Shown here: piece by piece, positions 40,704-50,925 of the stretch
Position numbering within the stretch: the stretch's first letter is position 1
Layout of the letters: each line of letters begins with the position of its first letter
DNA from: an uncultured Fibrobacteria bacterium
Lineage (GTDB): Bacteria > Fibrobacterota > Fibrobacteria > UBA11236
Assembly: GCA_963716395.1 (NCBI GenBank)
Contig: OY970309.1
Coordinates: forward strand, 1,536,001-1,600,000
Length of the DNA: 64,000 nt
Reading direction: 5' to 3'
Position numbers and translations under genes: made by a program
Notes under the pieces: generated by a model
Told to the model about the DNA's origin: nothing
Databases searched by the model: none
What the model saw: only the letters and a program-made list of their open reading frames with translations

Positions 40704-42902
40704 ATGCCGCATTTCCGCCGCCGTCCGGGTCTTGTCTTCGACCGCACACGCCTTTTCCTCGGCGTGCTGTTGGCGGCGGCCCTTTGTGCCGGAACGGTTC
40801 GTGGCGCCACGTCCGATGCCTTGCTGCAGCAATGGCGCCAAGCCCTGGCGGCCCGGTTTCAGTTCGAAAGCGATCATCCCGCCGCGGCCGCGCTCTTTTC
40901 GGGCCGGCGCGATTTTTCCGGAACCGCGGCGTGGCTGGATTCGCTGCGCGGCCCGTTTTGGAATTCGGATTCCACCCTGCGCGGATGGAATCTCGTCGCC
41001 CAGGCCCTGCTGCTGAACGCCCCACAACCCTCTGCGGCGGATCGCGCCCTCGCGGAACTTTCGCGCCGCTGGGCCGCCTATCCCGGTTGGTTGTACGAGG
41101 CGGCCAAAACCGCCGACCGCGCCGGCGCCGCGCGGCTGGCCGATTCGCTGCGCCTCAATCTGCGCCGGGCTCTCCTGGCGCAAGGGTACCGGCGTGTGCC
41201 GGAATTCGCAGCCGCCAGCCTGTGGACCGGCCTGGAACACATGCGTGTAGGCCGTTATGATCGCGCCCGCGCCGCTTTCGACTTGGCCGCGGCGTTCGAC
41301 CCGATTTGCCCGTGGGTTCCCTGGGCCCAGCTCGAAAACTCCATACACGCCTCCGGCCCCTGGCACCTGAATCTGGGGGAGACCTGGGATTATCTGAGTC
41401 AGACCTTTCGGCTGCTGCGTTTTTTCGGCAATCAGTTATTGCTCGCCTACAACGTGCTGCACGCGCTGCGCCTGGGATTTCTGTACTTCGGATTTGCCTG
41501 CCTGGTGGTTTTGTTCGCGCGCCATTTTTCGCGCCTCGCGCATCCTTGGGCCGAGCGCCTGCCCGGCAACGTCGATTTGCAGGTACGCTATGCGGCCATC
41601 GCCATGGTGCTCTTGGGTGCAGCCGTGGCCGGCGCCGGCATGGGCATCGCCGCCATGGCGGTGTTCCCCTGGATTTGGCCCCACGCCAACCCCGGCGAAA
41701 GGCGTCTGATGCGCTGGCTGCTGGCCGGACTGTTTTTACTGCCGGCGGCGCATTGGAGCGAACGCGTTTTGCTGCGGGCTTGGGATCCGCAAGATGCCCT
41801 GCATGCCTTTCATCTGGCTTCGACGCGCGGCTTTGATCCCGCCGTGCTGCAATTAGCCCGCGAGCAGAAGCCCCGGGATTCTTCCGACGCGGCGTATCTG
41901 GCTTTGGCGCAATCGCTGCAATACAAGAAGCAGGGAAATTACCGGCGCGCCCTGGAAACCGTCGAGGCGGCGCCCGAAAGCACCACCGTCCAACCTTTGC
42001 TGGAAATTCAAACAGCTGATTTGGCGTTTCTGGGATTCGATTATGCCCGGGCCGAGTCTTTGTTGACGCAAGCCAGTGGTAGGGCCGGAAACCGCGTCGA
42101 CCTGTGGTTCAATGCCAGTCAGGCCGCCCTTTTCCAAAACAGTTCGAGCCGCAACAAAGAATATCTCGATCGGGCGGCGTCTGCCGATGCCACCTTGGTG
42201 ACGAATTTCCTCAAAGAGAACGACGATTTGTTCGGCTCCAATGTGCCGGCCAACCGGCGGTTGATGGATCCCACGCTCCGCTCCAGTTCGGTCCTCTACG
42301 CGGCGATTTCCAACCGGGGTTGGACGCAACTTTTGACCGCGTCGGTTCCGAGCGGTTTGCTCGTTTTTCCCGGTGGCGTGTGGCTGGGCCTGTGTCTGGC
42401 TGCAAGCGTTCTGGTGTTCGTGCGTGCGCGCCAGAACTTCGTCACCCGGGGCAAGGCGGTCTTCCAATGCAAAATATGCGGAAGGATTATGTGCCGTACC
42501 TGCCGGAAAGGCGTACATTGCGCGCACTGTTTTAAAACCGTATCGGGCGTGGCCGAACCCAAGATGCGGCTGCAATTAATCGAACGCCTGCGCCTGCGCA
42601 GCCAGTCCTTGACCCTGGTCTTGTTCCGCGCCCTGAATGTGATGGCGCCCGGCAGCGGTTGGCTGTTCCTGGGACGGGCCGATACGCATCTTTTGCGCAT
42701 GCTGTGTGTCTCGATGCTGCTGGCCTGGACGTATCAGGCCCATCACGCCATCCTGGAATATCCGCGCTTCGCGCCGGGCCTCCTGGTGTCGCTGCCGGGT
42801 GTTCTGGTGGTCGCCTATTACGCCGGCACGCTGTGGCGTACCTATCTGTGGCGTAAAGGCGAGTCGCCACCGGTGGCCGCCGAAACGGGAGACGGGCTAT
42901 GA
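40704..42902 (+). CDS. Multi-TM TPR-like protein with Cys-rich zinc-binding motif
   Basis: Signal/TM segments, helical TPR-like blocks, CKICGRIMCRTC..HCAHC. Confidence 0.7.
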   Translation: MPHFRRRPGLVFDRTRLFLGVLLAAALCAGTVRGATSDALLQQWRQALAARFQFESDHPAAAALFSGRRDFSGTAAWLDSLRGPFWNSDSTLRGWNLVAQALLLNAPQPSAADRALAELSRRWAAYPGWLYEAAKTADRAGAARLADSLRLNLRRALLAQGYRRVPEFAAASLWTGLEHMRVGRYDRARAAFDLAAAFDPICPWVPWAQLENSIHASGPWHLNLGETWDYLSQTFRLLRFFGNQLLLAYNVLHALRLGFLYFGFACLVVLFARHFSRLAHPWAERLPGNVDLQVRYAAIAMVLLGAAVAGAGMGIAAMAVFPWIWPHANPGERRLMRWLLAGLFLLPAAHWSERVLLRAWDPQDALHAFHLASTRGFDPAVLQLAREQKPRDSSDAAYLALAQSLQYKKQGNYRRALETVEAAPESTTVQPLLEIQTADLAFLGFDYARAESLLTQASGRAGNRVDLWFNASQAALFQNSSSRNKEYLDRAASADATLVTNFLKENDDLFGSNVPANRRLMDPTLRSSSVLYAAISNRGWTQLLTASVPSGLLVFPGGVWLGLCLAASVLVFVRARQNFVTRGKAVFQCKICGRIMCRTCRKGVHCAHCFKTVSGVAEPKMRLQLIERLRLRSQSLTLVLFRALNVMAPGSGWLFLGRADTHLLRMLCVSMLLAWTYQAHHAILEYPRFAPGLLVSLPGVLVVAYYAGTLWRTYLWRKGESPPVAAETGDGL

Positions 42903-43981
42903 TCCTTCAAGGCGAACTGCGCGATTTTTCCCTGCCCGACGTGCTGCAACTTTTATGGCAGCAGAAAAAAAGCGGCGCCCTCACCGTGACTCAAGCGGGT
43001 TCCGAAAAGCGCACGGCGGAAATATTCATCTCGCAGGGAAACATCGTGGGCGTCAGCGTGCAGGGGCGTACACCGGAAAACAAGATTCAGGAAATCCTGA
43101 CCGCTTCCGGCCGGGTGTCGCCGCAGGAAATGGCCGAGCTGGAAACCTTTGCGCGCGACATGGGTCGACCTTTGCTCAGCACGCTTACGGCCAAGGGGTT
43201 GATCCAAGATGCGCAGCGCGAAACGTGGTTTCAAATGGCCGCCGAAGACATGGTGTGCGATTTGTTTGCCTGGAATGACGGACAATACGCCTTTTCCACC
43301 ACCCAGCGCAGCCTGCCGCATGCGCTCGGGACCCTGCGCCTCTCCACCGAGTTCGCTTGCATGGAAGGTATGCGGCGCGTGGACGAATGGCCGCATCTCC
43401 ATGAAGCCCTGACGTCGGATCAAATTGTGTTCCAGGTCACGAGTACGCCGCCCACCGAAGCCTTGGGCGAATGGGAGGCGTTCACCTTGGAAGTGGTGAA
43501 TGGTCGGCGCTCTTTGGCGGAAATCGGGCGCCTGGTCCCTTTCGGCGCTTTCCGGCTTTACGAGTGCATCCTAAATTTGTGGAAATCGGGTTGCATCGAA
43601 CCGACCGGAAGCGTCTCGGCTCAGCCGGCCGAGGCGCTGCCGATCGTGCAACAATCCGATCGGGATCAAAAAACGGCGCTGGTGCTGGGTTTGGCCGCGG
43701 TCTTTCTCCTGTTTATGCTTTTACTGCGGGGTGTGGGGATGTGGGTCGAATTGCAGGGCAACATTCCTCTGCGCCGGGTGGAAACGCGTGTGCGCGCCGA
43801 CTTCGCGCGGCGTAATGCGGAGGTTTTCGTGCTGCAAGACGCCTCTGCAAGGGGGGCGTACCCTCCCGACCTCGACGCCTTGGTGCGTGCGGGAATGCTG
43901 TCGGTGCCCGAAGCCGACGGCCCGGCCGGAGCGCGTTTGCTTTACCACCGTAACGGTGCCCTGGATTTTGTACTGGAATAG
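42899..43981 (+). CDS. DUF4388 domain membrane protein
   Basis: LQGELRDFSLPDVLQLL...KSGALTV, LFAWNDGQYAF, MEGMRRVDEW; C-terminal TM followed by YP..L..LV..G.L. Confidence 0.82.
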   Translation: MILQGELRDFSLPDVLQLLWQQKKSGALTVTQAGSEKRTAEIFISQGNIVGVSVQGRTPENKIQEILTASGRVSPQEMAELETFARDMGRPLLSTLTAKGLIQDAQRETWFQMAAEDMVCDLFAWNDGQYAFSTTQRSLPHALGTLRLSTEFACMEGMRRVDEWPHLHEALTSDQIVFQVTSTPPTEALGEWEAFTLEVVNGRRSLAEIGRLVPFGAFRLYECILNLWKSGCIEPTGSVSAQPAEALPIVQQSDRDQKTALVLGLAAVFLLFMLLLRGVGMWVELQGNIPLRRVETRVRADFARRNAEVFVLQDASARGAYPPDLDALVRAGMLSVPEADGPAGARLLYHRNGALDFVLE

Positions 43982-43983
43982 CC

Positions 43984-44796
43984 ATGCCGCTCCTGCTCAA
44001 ACCCCATCGCGTGGCCTCGCCGGCAGAAATTCTTGAAGCCGATCCCCGTTGCCAGAAATTCGTGCAAAGCTCCACGACGCTGGCGTATTGCTGTTTACTG
44101 ATCCGCCGGGGTGACTTGGATTTGGCGCGCCACGTTTGGAAGGTGTTGGCCGAGAACCAAGAGGCCGCTTTCCGCGACGAGTTGGTGTACTTGCAAGCCT
44201 GGATGGACATGAAAGCCCAGGATTTTGCCGCCGCCAAGGCCGCACTCCTGGGCCGCCTGGAAGCCCTGCCGGGCGATATGGCCGCACTTTCCCTCTTGCA
44301 GGCCTGTCTGGTGCTGGAACTGGATGAGAAAGCCCGCGGGTCCGCCAAATCCTACGCGTCTACCAAACCCGCTCCGGTCTTTACGTCGCCCTCCGCTCAG
44401 GGCGCCATTTCGACACCACCCGGCGCGACGGAAGCGCCGCCCTCCGAAAACAACCCCTATCAAACGGTGCTCTCCGATCCGCAAACCCGTGGTCTGGCGT
44501 TGTGGTCGGCCGGCGGCGAAGTCGAAAACTTAGGATCGGGCGAAGGGGAAGCGCTCGCCGCTGCGTTACCCGAATTGTTTCCAGCCTGGTTGGCCGAGGC
44601 GGTGGGAAACCTGGAAGGCGGAGAGGCGGTAAAAATCTGCTTCGCCTTTGAACACTGCACCGTCACCACATGGCATGGTGGCGGTCGGAACGCCGGACTG
44701 GTAACCGGGCCCTTGCGGCAATCGTTGCTCACCCTGGCCCGCGCCGAAAAAATTTTCCGCGCGTCCCCGCAGCCTCCGGTCCCGGAGGTCGCATGA
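43984..44796 (+). CDS. Hypothetical protein (TPR-like N-terminus, possible degenerate roadblock C-terminus)
   Basis: Helical N-terminus, Pro/Ser/Ala linker, alpha/beta C-terminal ~110 aa. Operon-coupled. Confidence 0.55.
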   Translation: MPLLLKPHRVASPAEILEADPRCQKFVQSSTTLAYCCLLIRRGDLDLARHVWKVLAENQEAAFRDELVYLQAWMDMKAQDFAAAKAALLGRLEALPGDMAALSLLQACLVLELDEKARGSAKSYASTKPAPVFTSPSAQGAISTPPGATEAPPSENNPYQTVLSDPQTRGLALWSAGGEVENLGSGEGEALAAALPELFPAWLAEAVGNLEGGEAVKICFAFEHCTVTTWHGGGRNAGLVTGPLRQSLLTLARAEKIFRASPQPPVPEVA

Positions 44797-45218
44797 GCGC
44801 GGCCCGCACGGCGGCCGAAGTGAATCGCCTTTTGGAAGCGGCCGAGCCCTCCGCCTGTCTCGGATATCTCAGTTTGGTGAACGGCATCGACGGCGCGGTG
44901 TTATTCGACCATCAGGGTTGGGCCATGGCCACGGGCGAAGAAACCACCGAAAACCTGCTTCTCGAAGCGCCGTATTTTCTTTTTCATTTCCAGGAAGTGC
45001 TCCGGAATTTTCAGGAGTTGGGACTCGAGCCGCTGGAGTCCCAAGTCGCGTTTGGCGGCGCGAAATTTTATCTCGTCCTCAATTTGGAGCGGGAAAGCCG
45101 GTTTTTTTTAGTAGTTTCCGGCGCGCGGGGAAGTTACGATCTCTTCAAATACCGGGTGGACCGCGGAGCCCAGGCCATCGTGGGCCTGCTTCACGGTCGC
45201 GGCTATTTCCGGAGTTGA
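44793..45218 (+). CDS. Roadblock/LC7-like protein
   Basis: L..VNGIDGAVLFDHQG, LGLEPLE, FFLVV pattern. Start MSAART overlaps the upstream stop. Confidence 0.6.
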   Translation: MSAARTAAEVNRLLEAAEPSACLGYLSLVNGIDGAVLFDHQGWAMATGEETTENLLLEAPYFLFHFQEVLRNFQELGLEPLESQVAFGGAKFYLVLNLERESRFFLVVSGARGSYDLFKYRVDRGAQAIVGLLHGRGYFRS

Positions 45219-45222
45219 ACCC

Positions 45223-45555
45223 ATGCAAGCGGTCTTGGAGCGAATCAACCGGATCAAAGGCGTTAAGGGTTCCAGCATCGTGGGATCCGACGGAATCGAA
45301 ATCGTCTCGGCCTTCCGGGCCCCGGTCCCCTCCGAATTCATCAGCGCCTTGATCGTTTCGATTCAGCAAGCGGCGGCCAAAATCGTGGCGGCCGCAGAGA
45401 CCGGCTCTTTGCTGCAAACCATGATTGAAGCGACCGAAGGAAAATTTTTTGTCCAAGTGGTAGGATTGGGATATCTTGTGGTCTTGGCCGACAGCCAAGC
45501 CAACGCGGGATTAATCCGAGTAGAAATAACCCAAGTCAGCCCCTTGATCAAATAA
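45223..45555 (+). CDS. Roadblock/LC7 protein (MglC-like)
   Basis: IKGVKGSSIVGSDGIEI, GSLLQTMIEATEGK, YLVVLAD..ANAGLIR. Confidence 0.85.
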   Translation: MQAVLERINRIKGVKGSSIVGSDGIEIVSAFRAPVPSEFISALIVSIQQAAAKIVAAAETGSLLQTMIEATEGKFFVQVVGLGYLVVLADSQANAGLIRVEITQVSPLIK

Positions 45556-45570
45556 GCAGAGGACGATCCT

Positions 45571-47139
45571 GTGGCATCCATCAATTACGCAACCCGAGAA
45601 ATCAGTTGCAAGATCGTGTATTACGGTCCGGGACTGAGCGGCAAAACCACCAATCTGCAAATCATCCACCGCAAAATTCCCGACAAGGACAAAAGCGAAA
45701 TGGTTTCGCTGGCCACTGAAACCGACCGCACCTTGTTTTTCGACTTCCTGCCGCTGGATCTGGGATCGATCAAGGGCTTTTCCACCAAGTTCCAGCTTTA
45801 TACCGTGCCGGGCCAGGTTTACTACAACGCCACCCGCAAGCTGGTGCTGCGCGGCGTCGACGGCGTGGTGTTCGTGGTCGACTCGCAGACCGACAAGATT
45901 CAGGAGAACGTGGAAAGCTTCACCAATCTGCAGGAGAACCTGCGCGAGTACGGGCATGCCATCGAGGCGATTCCACTGGTGCTGCAATACAACAAGCGCG
46001 ACCTGCCCAACGTCTATCCGGTGCAGCAATTGAACGACCTGTTCAACAAATGGAACCTCCCCTATTGCGAAGCGGTGGCGGCCACCGGGGTTGGCGTGTT
46101 CACCACTCTCAAGGCCATCGGCAAATTGGTGATCGACCGCTTCAACGCCAAGTACGCGGGTTTTCAAGGCGCCGGTCGCCGCATGCAGCCGGGCCAACGC
46201 ATGCAGCCTCCGCCGACTTCTCCCGCTCCTTCACCGTCTCGCGGCGATATGCGTCCCTTGCCCACTTCGCCTTTCGGCAGTCCCACCGGAATGCCGGGAG
46301 GGCCGCGAACCCCGGCTCAGGGGCCCGCCGGTTTTGCTCCGCCGCCGCGCGAAAACCCCTTCGCATCGGCGCCGCCTTCTTTTTCGCCGGGGGCCCCGGG
46401 ACCCGGGCACCCGCCGTTCATGATTCCGACACCTTTCCAAACACCTCCGGGAAACGCGCCTTCTCCTGCCGGGGGATTCGCTCCGCCGCCTCCGCCCGCC
46501 CCCAATTATCCGGGCGGCGGTTTTGCCGCCGGCCCGGCACCGTACCCGGGATCCAATGCACCGTTTCCGCCCCCGGGAAATATGCCCCCGCCGGGCGGAT
46601 CGCCCGCCCCCGGAGGCATGCCTTCGCGGCCGGGCTTTCCCTCCGCTCCGGGCCCGAGTCCCGGACAGGGTAACATACCGGTTTCTCCTTTCCTGGATTC
46701 GTTCGCCGGTCCCCGGCCGGCCGCCCCGCTGGGCAATCCCGGACCGATTCCGGGATTGCAAACCAGCAACCCGTTCGCGGGGCAACGTCCGCCGCCTCCG
46801 CCGTTTCCGGCATTCGGCGGCGCGCCACAACCGCAACAGCCGCCACCGCCCCCGTATCCGGGTGGCCCCTTTGCCCCGGGCAACATGCCGTCCATGGGCG
46901 GCCCCACCCCTTTCCCCGCACCCAACACACCTTTTCCTCCGACGCGGCCCAACGAACCCGAAGTCGCGCCGCCTCCGCCCCCGCCCGGGGGGCTGCGCAA
47001 CAGCTTCGACGACGCCAGCGGTATCGTGTCGACTTATGAAGACGTGCAGCGCAACGAGAATTTCAAAACCAAAAAACTGCCGTTGCCGGGAGAAAAGAAA
47101 AAGGGTTTGTTCGACGGTTTTTTCCGCAAGGACAAATAG
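45571..47139 (+). CDS. mglA: MglA-family small GTPase with long Pro-rich C-terminal extension
   Basis: INYATREISCKIVYYGPGLSGKTTNL, TETDRTLFFDF, YTVPGQ, VDGVVFVVDSQ, QYNKRD, followed by a ~320-aa extension. Confidence 0.92.
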   Translation: MASINYATREISCKIVYYGPGLSGKTTNLQIIHRKIPDKDKSEMVSLATETDRTLFFDFLPLDLGSIKGFSTKFQLYTVPGQVYYNATRKLVLRGVDGVVFVVDSQTDKIQENVESFTNLQENLREYGHAIEAIPLVLQYNKRDLPNVYPVQQLNDLFNKWNLPYCEAVAATGVGVFTTLKAIGKLVIDRFNAKYAGFQGAGRRMQPGQRMQPPPTSPAPSPSRGDMRPLPTSPFGSPTGMPGGPRTPAQGPAGFAPPPRENPFASAPPSFSPGAPGPGHPPFMIPTPFQTPPGNAPSPAGGFAPPPPPAPNYPGGGFAAGPAPYPGSNAPFPPPGNMPPPGGSPAPGGMPSRPGFPSAPGPSPGQGNIPVSPFLDSFAGPRPAAPLGNPGPIPGLQTSNPFAGQRPPPPPFPAFGGAPQPQQPPPPPYPGGPFAPGNMPSMGGPTPFPAPNTPFPPTRPNEPEVAPPPPPPGGLRNSFDDASGIVSTYEDVQRNENFKTKKLPLPGEKKKGLFDGFFRKDK

Positions 47140-47142
47140 CCC

Positions 47143-47628
47143 ATGGGTGATTTCGTCCTCTTCAAAGAGGATGTGGAGCGGATTCAGAAAATCCTTTCGC
47201 ATCTGCTGACGGAATCCGCCGCCACCTACGTGCTTTTGATCAACAAAGACGGCAACCTCATCGCCAACGTGGGATTCAGTTCCTCCATCGACGCGAACAG
47301 CCTGGCCGCGCTGGCGGCGGGCAGCTTCGCCTCGACCCGCGCCATTGCGGCGTTGGTGGGGGAAACCGAATTCACCGTGCTGTTCCATCAAGGCGCGAAA
47401 GAGAACATCCACATCTCGCTGGTCGACGAAGACGGAATTCTGGTGCTGATTTTCGACGACCGCACCAATCTCGGCATGGTGAAAATGGTGGCCGAGCAGG
47501 CACGCCGCAAATTGTCCGAAGTGCTGGACGACGTGCGGGCGAACGAAGTCGACGCGTTGCCTCCGGTGCCCGACGCGGAAAACGATGTGGCGGATCGCAT
47601 CGATTCCCTTTTTCCACCCGGCCCCTGA
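47143..47628 (+). CDS. mglB: MglB-family roadblock GTPase-activating protein
   Basis: LINKDGNLI, LAALAAGSFA.T.AIA.LVGE.EF..LFHQG..NIHISLV, FDDRTNLGMV, acidic tail ending IDSLF. Confidence 0.9.
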   Translation: MGDFVLFKEDVERIQKILSHLLTESAATYVLLINKDGNLIANVGFSSSIDANSLAALAAGSFASTRAIAALVGETEFTVLFHQGAKENIHISLVDEDGILVLIFDDRTNLGMVKMVAEQARRKLSEVLDDVRANEVDALPPVPDAENDVADRIDSLFPPGP

Positions 47629-47682: not shown

Positions 47683-48723
<1,041 letters not shown>

Positions 48724-48819
48724 TTTTGCGCGCGGTTTGCCCGTCGGGCACGGCGGTTGGCGTTATATTGATCTTTGAACTATGGTCAACGCGCCGCGAC
48801 GTTTCCGCGGGGGGCAAAT

Positions 48820-50925
48820 GTGAAGGCGCGCCGCATTCTCGGACTGGGAATTATCGCCGTCCTCTCCCTGGTCGTTTTATGTATTCCGGGGTCCACGCGT
48901 TTTGCCCGCCCTTTTTTTTATCGCCTGTTCTTAGCCTTGCCGGCCCGGCATTCCGATCCTGTCACCCGCGTCGTCACTACGACGCCAGAGAATTTGCCGG
49001 CCGTCCTGCAGGAATTGACCACGGCGCAACCCAAATTGATCGCCTTGGATCCGGCGCTGTGGCAGGGTCGCGGCGACGAGGTGCAAAATCTATTGGCCCT
49101 CTTGCGCGGCATTCCGGTGGTGTTGGGATGGGCGGCCGATTCCGCAGGTCCGGGGATCGCCGTTTCCGAACCCGCCGCGCCGATGCCGCGTCTTTCCACT
49201 TTGGAAGGCGCGCTGGCGATGAGCCTGCCGGTCATCCATCTGCGCGCCGGCGAGGCCCCACCCGCGCGTTTCGGTAACGTCTCGGCCGGTTGGGAGGTAG
49301 AGCCCAAGGGCCCGATTAATTCTTTGCAGGCTTTGGCGCGCCAGGGCGACGCCATCGTCCCATCGGCGGGCCTGGAAACTTTGCGCCGCAGTGCCGAGGT
49401 GTTTCCCGATCGCATCGCCTATGTGGACGGGATCGGCCTTTTCATCGGCAAGGATCTCACTTTGCCGTTGACCGCCCGGGGCAAGGTGCTCCTGCGCTTG
49501 CGATCCGCCGCGCCGATTCCGGCCGGGGTGCTGCCGCAGAATCTGGAGGCGATGGCCGGTAAAATCATCCTAGTCGGATCGCCGCAGCATGTGGTCGCCA
49601 CCGCGGCCGGCCCGCGGTTGGCGGTCGAAACCTGGGCCTCGCTGGTCGACGACGCCCTGGCCCACGAAACCTTGGCGTTACCTGCGGGTGCGCCCTGGGT
49701 GGCCGCCGGCGTGGGCGCGGCCGGCATCCTGGCCGTGGAATTGGCTTTCTTCTTCGGCATGGAGGCGGGCGGTTTGGCCGCCTTGGCCGGCGGGCTGTCG
49801 CTGTTGTACCCCTTGCTGTCGCTGGGATTTTTCCTGGGTGCGAACTGGTGGCTGCCGCCCGACAAACCCTTCTTCACCCTGCTGGCCGCGGGCGCCGCCG
49901 CGGCGCTGTTCGCGGTGGGAAGAGGCCGTGCCGATGCCCCGGTCCGGCCTGAGCCGCCTCGGCCAATCCGGACGCCGTTGCCCAAGACGCCCCTGGCGGC
50001 ATCGTCCGCGGGGTCCCCCTCTCGGCCGCATGTGCATGCCCCGCGCCTCGGCGAGAAACCGCCGTCGGCCGAGTCGGGGCTGGAGCGCGACGCACAGGGG
50101 CAATTGACTCGCCTCGGACGCTACCGCATCGTGCGGAAAATGAGCTCGGGATCGTCGGGAGATGTTTTCGAAGGCCTCGATACCCACATGGCGCGGCGGG
50201 TCGCCGTCAAGACCATGGCCCGCGGCGCGTCGCTGCATTTCGATCACGCGCTGGAACGCTTTCAGGTCGAGGCCAAGGCGGCGGGATCGCTCAACCACCC
50301 CAACATCAACACCGTCCACGATTTCGGCACCCTCGGCGATGTTTCTTACATGGTCCTCGAGTATCTCGACGGCGTCACGCTGTCGCAGTGGATGCGCAGC
50401 CATCCCATTCCGCCTCCGCCGGCTGTGCAGGAATGGGTTCGTCAAATCGCCGCTGCGCTCGACTACGCCCATGCCCACCACGTCATCCACCGCGACCTTA
50501 AGCCCAGCAACCTCATGGTGGTCGACGAGGGAAAGACGGTCAAGCTCCTCGACTTCGGCGTGGCCAAAGTCGAAGACGTTATGCTGACCCAGACCGGCAT
50601 GACCGTGGGCACCCCGTCGTACATGTCTCCCGAACAATTGCAGGGCGAAAAGGTGACCGCCGCCTCGGATCAGTACTCCCTGGCCGTGGTGCTCTATCAG
50701 CTTTACAGCCACCGGCTGCCCTACGGCGGCAGCCGCATTCCCGAGATTTGCGGGCACATTCTCAAAGGGGAATTCATTCCGCTGCACGAGGCCAATCCCG
50801 TCTTGGATCCGGCCTATTGGGAGGTGTTTCTGCGCGCGCTGCGGCGCGATCCCGCCGAGCGGTTTCCCGATTGCCGTGCCCTGGGCGATGAACTCGAAGG
50901 TGTACGCGCGCATTCCGCCCCGTAA
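48820..50925 (+). CDS. Membrane Ser/Thr protein kinase with CHASE2-like extracytoplasmic domain
   Basis: N-terminal TM, periplasmic domain, three TMs, Pro-rich linker, then VAVK, HRDLKPSN, DFG, GTPSYMSPE, SDQYSL. Confidence 0.88.
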   Translation: MKARRILGLGIIAVLSLVVLCIPGSTRFARPFFYRLFLALPARHSDPVTRVVTTTPENLPAVLQELTTAQPKLIALDPALWQGRGDEVQNLLALLRGIPVVLGWAADSAGPGIAVSEPAAPMPRLSTLEGALAMSLPVIHLRAGEAPPARFGNVSAGWEVEPKGPINSLQALARQGDAIVPSAGLETLRRSAEVFPDRIAYVDGIGLFIGKDLTLPLTARGKVLLRLRSAAPIPAGVLPQNLEAMAGKIILVGSPQHVVATAAGPRLAVETWASLVDDALAHETLALPAGAPWVAAGVGAAGILAVELAFFFGMEAGGLAALAGGLSLLYPLLSLGFFLGANWWLPPDKPFFTLLAAGAAAALFAVGRGRADAPVRPEPPRPIRTPLPKTPLAASSAGSPSRPHVHAPRLGEKPPSAESGLERDAQGQLTRLGRYRIVRKMSSGSSGDVFEGLDTHMARRVAVKTMARGASLHFDHALERFQVEAKAAGSLNHPNINTVHDFGTLGDVSYMVLEYLDGVTLSQWMRSHPIPPPPAVQEWVRQIAAALDYAHAHHVIHRDLKPSNLMVVDEGKTVKLLDFGVAKVEDVMLTQTGMTVGTPSYMSPEQLQGEKVTAASDQYSLAVVLYQLYSHRLPYGGSRIPEICGHILKGEFIPLHEANPVLDPAYWEVFLRALRRDPAERFPDCRALGDELEGVRAHSAP

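Follow-up and report, generated by a model that had tools for sequence, protein, structure and literature searches.

A 64,000-nucleotide stretch of DNA from an uncultured Fibrobacteria bacterium (assembly GCA_963716395.1, contig OY970309.1, positions 1,536,001 to 1,600,000; hereafter the window) encodes an MglA protein in which a canonical G domain is followed by a long Pro/Gly-rich tail with a conserved C-terminus resembling the membrane-targeting sequence of MinD. The architecture is conserved among relatives, the terminus is under purifying selection, its motif is rare elsewhere, and transmembrane anchors take its place in some homologues. Reading these sequences together, we think it probable that a basic, aromatic C-terminal peptide, carried on a long disordered linker, holds the MglA switch at the inner membrane.

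MglA is the model polarity GTPase of bacteria, and in the species studied it is a soluble protein of about 195 amino acids that is sited through partner proteins. The window protein, the sole MglA of its cell, is built like a membrane-anchored Ras, and most genomes of the phylum have an MglA of the same build. Should the anchor prove functional, bacteria would have found ways of retaining a small GTPase on the membrane that need no lipidation, and would have done so many times, with an amphipathic peptide, a transmembrane helix or other motifs. In that event, the tail fused to green fluorescent protein, together with liposomes, would offer a simple system for seeing how tether length and anchor strength tune a polarity circuit made of a GTPase and its GTPase-activating protein (GAP). 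Long MglA homologues as such were already known; the conserved MinD-like terminus on a long-tailed MglA is not described in the literature that we searched. There is also a blind spot in the main earlier survey: this 2014 study of prokaryotic small GTPases placed the Fibrobacteres in Group 1 and excluded sequences over 240 amino acids (PMC4316618), yet our length-restricted search returned at least 8000 MglA-like proteins of 287-914 amino acids.

The MglA gene and its G domain

The open reading frame (ORF) at 45571..47139 on the forward strand encodes 522 amino acids. It starts with GTG, 7 nt after a GAGGA box, and stops at TAG. Its parts are as follows.

45571..46155, forward strand: MglA G domain, residues 1-195, with the P-loop GPGLSGKT, intrinsic Arg53, T78xxGQ82 and NKRD
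46156..46998, forward strand: Pro/Gly-rich, low-charge linker, residues 196-476 (about 280 amino acids), of varying length among relatives
46354..46362, forward strand: NPF tripeptide, residues 262-264, with a second copy at 46768-46776 (residues 400-402)
46666..46710, forward strand: conserved internal motif QGNIPVSPFLDSFAG, residues 366-380, with a column identity of 0.54 against 0.32 around it
46999..47136, forward strand: conserved C-terminal module, residues 477-522 (46 amino acids), made of SGIVSTYED (acidic-aromatic), FKTKKLPLP (basic-Pro) and KKK + LFDGFF + RKDK
47095..47136, forward strand: putative membrane-targeting peptide KKKGLFDGFFRKDK, residues 509-522, with the pattern PhiPhi-x-x-PhiPhi and basic flanks

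The initial annotation of this DNA, made from the letters alone, had described an intact MglA G domain with its intrinsic arginine in TDRT and its glutamine in PGQ, and this was borne out. In a PDB search, residues 3-191 matched MglA of M. xanthus (5ymx) at E 4.5e-75 and that of T. thermophilus (3t12) at E 4.1e-72, the next-ranked family being Rab27B at E 6.7e-6. Pairwise alignment finds the TDRT arginine R53 and T78 and Q82 of TVPGQ to be the same residues in M. xanthus MglA, and R53, T78, G81 and Q82 are invariant in an alignment of 111 sequences, with TxxGQ replacing DxxGQ. Pfam returned generic Ras, Arf and Gtr1 matches at residues 14-185 and none in the tail. Mean identity to the window protein over the G domain is 0.91 among 26 family members. 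In the AlphaFold2 model built on the 111-sequence alignment, the pLDDT of the G domain is mostly 84-97; an earlier model from the 26-sequence family alignment was poor even in the G domain (mean pLDDT 47.7) and was set aside in its favor.

Homology of the G domain, the intrinsic arginine with TxxGQ and an adjoining MglB-like gene place the protein in the MglA family. At 522 amino acids it exceeds the single-domain size used in the 2014 survey, where the limit of 240 amino acids reads as an operational cut-off and not as a biochemical criterion (PMC4316618). The host genome is a single contig of 3.75 Mb, 99% complete, and the window gene is its only MglA match. As the sole MglA of a complete genome, it is an MglA orthologue and not a side copy. 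With the MglA proteins of M. xanthus and T. thermophilus (Group 1, 195-196 amino acids) it shares the G domain, Arg53, TxxGQ, NKxD and an adjacent MglB-like Roadblock gene; canonical MglA, however, stops after the G domain (PDB chains of 195-203 amino acids), whereas the window protein adds 327 residues with a conserved terminus. Membership in the MinD/ParA ATPase family was considered and rejected, the protein being a Ras-like GTPase and not a deviant Walker A ATPase, and we regard the likeness to MinD as an analogy between peptides rather than a homology between proteins.

The MinD-like C-terminus

The protein ends in GEKKKGLFDGFFRKDK, with nine Lys or Arg and three Asp or Glu among its last 26 residues. 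The C-terminus of E. coli K-12 MinD, which had been quoted correctly at the outset, reads ...EEKKGFLKRLFGG in the database record. When KKKG-LF-DG-FF-RKDK of the window is set against KKG-FL-KR-LF-GG of MinD, the two agree in lying at the extreme C-terminus, in their basic, lysine-bearing flanks and in the i/i+1/i+4/i+5 spacing of the large side chains. We write this spacing PhiPhi-x-x-PhiPhi, meaning two hydrophobic residues, two other residues (no Pro) and two hydrophobic residues. Measured on one hydrophobicity scale, the best 8-mer of the window peptide has a hydrophobic moment of 0.73 and that of MinD one of 0.69. The MinD sequence, which is reported to attach the protein to the membrane as a C-terminal amphipathic helix (PMC13537761), sits on a ParA/MinD ATPase without a long linker, unlike its counterpart in the window MglA.

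The terminus is well conserved. Identity to the window protein in the 26-sequence alignment is 0.63 over the last 46 residues and 0.73 over the last 14. Of the 27 closest homologues, P0003-P0029, whose G domains are 83-93% identical, 25 carry the C-terminal module and end in ...FKTKKLPxPxEKKKGFFDGLFKKDK. Orthologues that stopped after the G domain or lacked the motif had been named beforehand as an observation that would refute a tether; the nearest orthologues neither stop there nor lose the motif. The two closest homologues without it are P0004 (425 amino acids) and P0006 (910 amino acids, with a Roadblock domain), the latter suggesting either a read-through or frameshift that joined MglA to the downstream MglB in the assembly, or a genuine fusion.

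It could be argued that the tail is an artefact of annotation or assembly and that the true product is an MglA of about 195 amino acids, since high-GC, Pro-rich coding sequence does give long open frames in several frames here. We find this hardly credible. The frame runs for 327 codons past the G domain without a stop, MglB begins 4 nt after the stop of the ORF, and the same frame with the same conserved terminal peptide recurs in dozens of independent assemblies despite changes in length. Over a run of 22 codons ending with the motif, moreover, pN was 0.085-0.19 in 14 of 16 pairwise comparisons, with pS at 0.56-1.0, near saturation. Because pN lies so far below pS, the terminal frame must be translated and under selection, and on such codon comparisons an untranslated or artefactual tail is ruled out.

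The motif is also concentrated at the end of the tail. Of 257 long homologues, 111 have PhiPhi-x-x-PhiPhi within their last 22 residues, whereas it occurs in 5 of 3034 windows of the same size from inside their tails, so the MinD-like ending goes well beyond chance. In the window's own genome, a looser form of the motif in the last 16 residues was found in 26 of 8145 crude ORFs, among which MglA has the most basic flank. As no second protein with a comparably basic version was seen among the C-termini of these crude ORFs, the motif is not a general tag in this genome. No MinD in the genome passed the family cut-off (best score 66 bits against 212.9). The genome's own FtsA was examined as a possible match to the MglA end and discarded, its terminus being a different, FtsA-type amphipathic sequence (...DIWKRMTGWVKNYV).

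Two further comparisons bear on the destination of the terminus. First, another 15 of the 257 homologues, after tails of similar length, have a transmembrane-like ending, defined as a 19-residue stretch with a mean Kyte-Doolittle hydropathy of at least 1.6; one cluster of this type bears the name Planctomycetota, and three clusters of the helix type bear the name Zixibacteria. The window protein itself stays below 1.6 and is sorted with the amphipathic endings, outside the transmembrane class. Second, the same kind of terminus is found on MglB. Of the MglB-like ORFs beside MglA in other families, 8 of 22 are 272-296 amino acids long, against the usual 160 or so, and carry a motif-type terminus (L032, L045-L049 and L054 of family f15, and L052 of f17). 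These f15 and f17 proteins end in the same two-part module, a YFTS-type motif followed by a basic amphipathic segment, as the neighboring MglA; in one example, an MglB with ...YLYFTSMNYLKNK...KGLFSRFFNRSK lies beside an MglA with ...LYFTSVN...GSFLSKFFNKEK. The presence of this terminus on MglB means that the module is portable between proteins and is not a feature of the G domain, and, judging by the shared ending, GTPase and GAP may use one targeting signal in these families.

The linker

The tract between the G domain and the terminal module had been described as a P/G-rich region with FAPPP, PFP and NPF motifs, and the counts agree: the tail (residues 196-522, 327 residues) holds two, four and two copies of these, respectively, and is 30.6% Pro and 15% Gly. 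Residues 196-470 are richer still, at 34.9% Pro, 15.6% Gly and 7% Phe, with 16 charged residues in 275. GC content is 0.66-0.72 over the tail against 0.54-0.55 in the flanks, as expected from Pro, Gly and Ala codons, and a check for tandem repeats in the DNA found none of note, so the linker is not explained by repeats. After residue 200 the 111-sequence AlphaFold2 model has a pLDDT of 41-62 and no secondary structure, and the tail does not dock on the G domain. Across the 26-sequence family alignment, linker column identity is 0.32 and total protein length ranges from 442 to 704 amino acids. The nearest orthologues thus keep the terminal motif through considerable changes in length, as an anchor on a leash would lead one to expect; this does not extend to the Fibrobacter-like families, which carry DDIELRPYVPKKK instead.

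Disordered the linker certainly appears to be, but the idea of a plain leash does not hold, because short conserved motifs lie within it. NPF was seen 79 times in the 26 family tails where composition shuffles predict 9.6, an enrichment of about eightfold, with at least one copy in 24 of the 26. The internal motif at residues 366-380 takes the form IPVSPF(V/L)(E/D)(S/G)F, and the regular expression IPxxPx[LV][EDQN] matches 22 of the 26 tails. With NPF enriched, IPVSPFVE conserved and further conserved motifs standing before the terminus, it is very likely from sequence that parts of the tail are read by proteins. We know of no bacterial reader for NPF or for IPVSPF-type linker motifs.

An alternative, which we judge distinctly improbable, is that the tail works mainly through its bulk, as an entropic spacer or as a self-associating Pro/Gly/Phe-rich condensate region, and that the terminal peptide is of minor importance. 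The composition of the linker (35% Pro, 16% Gly, 7% Phe and few charges), its want of predicted structure and the persistence of long tails in families without the helix are all consistent with such a role. However, it is the linker that has been free to diverge in sequence and length, whereas the terminus has been conserved under purifying selection.

A proposed membrane tether and its main alternative

We suggest that the tether would work as follows. A canonical G domain is presumably cycled by the adjacent MglB-like GAP, perhaps with the help of two extra small proteins of the operon. The linker of about 280 residues, Pro/Gly-rich, nearly uncharged and disordered, with the short motifs NPF and IPVSPFL(D/E)SF, would lead to the last 14 residues (three lysines, LFDGFF and RKDK), which would act as a MinD-like membrane-targeting sequence: the basic residues could bind anionic lipid head groups, and the four large hydrophobic side chains at i, i+1, i+4 and i+5 could insert into the inner leaflet. 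Such a flexible leash would keep the G domain no more than some tens of nanometres away from the cytoplasmic membrane, where membrane-bound effectors and regulators would be met in two dimensions, as with Ras. The anchor may be constitutive or dependent on avidity, while partner binding would depend on GTP, and the short motifs of the linker could serve as extra docking sites. The type IV pilus machinery is a candidate effector, in view of four PilT-family ATPases that score above the cut-off in this genome. Membrane binding, helix formation on lipid and the functional consequence of the tether are all points that we infer. Binding may also depend on clustering, since a single short peptide may bind weakly and E. 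coli MinD monomers do not stay on the membrane, in which they are reported to differ from those of B. subtilis (PMC13537761).

We favor the membrane as destination because transmembrane anchors occur in homologues, the same terminus occurs on MglB and the hydrophobic moment equals that of MinD. A terminus that is found on two different proteins and is replaced elsewhere by a transmembrane segment is what a portable membrane-targeting signal would look like.

Several observations weigh against this interpretation. When the last 14 residues were shuffled, 3597 of 10000 trials (36%) gave a hydrophobic moment at least as high as the real one, and in a scan of the whole protein the helices of the G domain exceeded the terminus; because the amphipathicity of the peptide is in itself not statistically special, the evidence is that of position and conservation. 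The 111-sequence AlphaFold2 model has no helix at its C-terminal end, where pLDDT is 47-62, and the core of the peptide in its own family, FFDGLF or LFDGFF, has a central Asp-Gly that is not helix-friendly. Membrane-targeting peptides often fold only on lipid. We also took 32 loci, one or a few per family and chosen by hand, of which two ran off their contigs; of the 30 complete ORFs, 22 close with the motif and the remaining 8 lack it. The endings of these 8 are DDIELRPYVPKKK in the Fibrobacter-like families f5 and f6, ...FNPF... in f2, YPTRRMPLGP in f8 and that of one f11 protein, and since whole families have a long tail without this terminus, a long-tailed MglA does not require a membrane helix. 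In a tree built quickly from 243 G-domain sequences, 23 changes are needed to explain the helix state, against a mean of 77.9 with shuffled labels, and that state does not form a single clean clade; the transmembrane state needs 6 against 13.8. The helix terminus is heritable but may be labile, or its pattern may be blurred by truncated metagenomic proteins. Finally, the helix is always preceded by conserved motifs, SGIVSTYED and FKTKKLP here and YFTSVN and KKPVNP in other classes, and the whole module could perhaps be read by a protein.

This last point leads to the main alternative, namely that a protein, and not lipid, recognizes the terminal module as a short linear motif, so that the likeness to MinD is superficial and the tail is a multivalent docking arm. 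A polar hub, the PATAN/DUF4388 protein, a Roadblock dimer or a component of the pilus or divisome could be the reader. The absence of a predicted helix and the constant company of the preceding motifs fit such a view, as does the fact that the f15 MglB proteins carry both parts of the module together. The NPF and IPVSPFVE motifs of the linker point the same way, and the terminal motifs of sister families (IELRPYVPKKK, YPTRRMPLGP) are plainly no membrane helices; in one lineage (L027/P0142), moreover, DYLDIKPF resembles DYLDIPAF, the protein-binding motif of E. coli FtsZ. On the other hand, replacement of the terminus by transmembrane-like anchors indicates the membrane as the destination, and the basic flanks and four bulky hydrophobic residues match a proven lipid-binding peptide. 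The motif is, besides, kept across lineages whose operon partners differ, the genes for the 110-residue Roadblock protein and a 141-residue protein described below being confined to the window's own order, and in the AlphaFold2 model the module is not docked on any other part of its chain. On balance, we regard a protein-read module as rather unlikely, and a membrane tether as the better account. The proposal of a small GTPase tethered on a flexible leash thus survives in its architecture, which is real and conserved, and is favored by the comparative data; it is qualified by the AlphaFold2 model, which lacks the helix, and by the Fibrobacter-like orthologues, which end otherwise.

Comparison with known systems

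In the eukaryotic Ras and Rab proteins, a hypervariable region is combined with a lipid anchor. The window MglA resembles them in having a small Ras-like G domain, a variable flexible region and a basic C-terminal membrane anchor, putative in this case. It differs in having no Cys or CAAX box and no lipidation, in a linker about ten times longer and in an independent origin within the bacterial MglA lineage. The Asgard Rabs are described as having no such extensions, and the membrane-anchoring C-terminal extension has been argued to have arisen in proto-eukaryotes (PMC10933270); it is because that paper places the extension there that an independent bacterial version deserves attention.

FtsZ offers a bacterial parallel with the same three-part logic: its nucleotide-binding domain is joined by a variable, disordered linker to a short, conserved end that tethers the protein to the membrane. 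It differs in its tubulin-like rather than Ras-like fold, in polymerizing and in that its canonical peptide binds FtsA or ZipA rather than lipid. A C-terminal amphipathic helix of Mycoplasma FtsZ is, however, reported to bind liposomes and E. coli membranes (bioRxiv 10.1101/2023.08.29.555414).

Among bacterial homologues, the closest precedent is the set of long 'Group II MglA2' proteins listed by Fremgen et al. 2010 (PMC3000849, Table 2), and the window protein belongs to the same phylum-wide set. That list holds a 313-residue F. succinogenes protein said to be without an MglB partner, and the article proposes no function or motif for long MglA. The Fibrobacter-type tails in our comparison are 315-330 amino acids long, end in DDIELRPYVPKKK and are mostly without an adjacent MglB, whereas the window type is longer, has a MinD-like end and keeps MglB. 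Our literature search found no membrane anchor or conserved terminal motif on MglA; the supplementary tables of PMC4316618 and PMC3169522, which lay outside that search, may list Fibrobacter MglA.

The terminus across the phylum

An MglA match at E 1e-30 or better is present in 245 of 296 genomes of the phylum. Among the matches listed, 141 of 150 lie in open frames of at least 288 amino acids, and most of the nine shorter ones are partial or at contig ends; long open MglA frames are the rule in the phylum. Within genus g1, to which the window belongs, an MglA match was found in only 1 of 11 other genomes. These genomes measure 1.9-2.7 Mb, compared with the 3.75 Mb of the window's own, and either streamlining removed the module from such relatives or the genus is a heterogeneous grouping.

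Taking these distributions together, one may speculate, with a good deal of doubt, that the whole phylum and at least the Zixibacteria arrived independently at the Ras/Rab design. In some families the GAP MglB would be anchored alike, giving a two-dimensional, Min-like reaction-diffusion polarity system, and the linker motifs (the NPF repeats, IPVSPFVE and the DYLDIKPF of sister lineages) would recruit pilus or division proteins.

Other endings were seen as well. Several long-tailed lineages end in or contain DYLDIKPFAG, FIDLQPFRG or DDIELRPYVPKKK (L027/P0142, P0128, P0138, P0143, P0154 and P0170; L025, L026, L028, L037 and L044). DYLDIKPFAG resembles the C-terminal peptide of FtsZ, which reads ...DYLDIPAFLRKQAD in E. 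coli and ...YETPAFLRNQAD at the end of the long open frame of FtsZ in the window's own genome, so that a mimic of the FtsZ tail is possible in these lineages. Many distant long homologues (P0181, P0182, P0189, P0201, P0202, P0209 and many of P0212-P0253) have yet another conserved, strand-like end, for example ...EIVVPVEV...RRFKLSLRLRLE...

The operon and its neighbors

The genes around MglA, all on the same strand, form a conserved cluster.

42899..43981, forward strand: DUF4388 (PATAN) protein, first gene of the conserved cluster (PF14332, E 2e-27)
43984..44796, forward strand: 270-residue ORF, faintly TPR-like (weak TPR match, E 0.048), conserved upstream in own-family loci
44793..45218, forward strand: 141-residue ORF of no known family, whose ATG overlaps the upstream stop; listed as a 182-residue ORF from 44670
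45223..45555, forward strand: second Roadblock/LC7 protein, 110 residues, directly upstream of MglA (PF03259, E 3.1e-8)
47143..47628, forward strand: MglB-like Roadblock protein, 161 residues, starting 4 nt past the MglA stop (PF03259, E 2.1e-12)

The only two Roadblock/LC7 matches in the whole genome are those directly upstream and downstream of MglA. The downstream protein matches the NCBIfam MglB model at E 4.4e-23 with 82 bits, under the 200-bit cut-off, and an MglB-like gene follows MglA in all own-family loci that extend that far. The 110-residue Roadblock protein is present at 75-84% identity in all 17 loci L007-L023. The 141-residue ORF had no Pfam match even at E 10 and is kept at the same position in own-family loci with 41-61% identity; standing as it does among MglA and Roadblock genes of one operon, it may encode a divergent Roadblock-like protein or a co-regulator.

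Loci L007-L023 repeat the order PATAN, 270, 141, Roadblock, MglA, MglB as far as their DNA extends, and the shorter arrangement PATAN, MglA, MglB recurs in other families of the phylum; the PATAN gene lies upstream of MglA in the window's own family and in several others. An association of PATAN with MglA and MglB has been reported before (PMC4316618). The 17 related loci with named records all come from metagenome-assembled genomes of Fibrobacteria or Fibrobacterota, bar one titled 'uncultured bacterium'. A search for sequencing runs of the organism found no RNA run; the runs found were DNA from soil metagenomes, with word shares of at most 0.17.

Downstream of MglB lie, on the same strand, a sigma-54 activator without a receiver domain (47683-48723) and a CHASE2-linked Ser/Thr kinase (48775-50925). 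Two loci from the same genus, L022 and L039, likewise have the sigma-54 activator downstream of MglB, at 68-76% identity.

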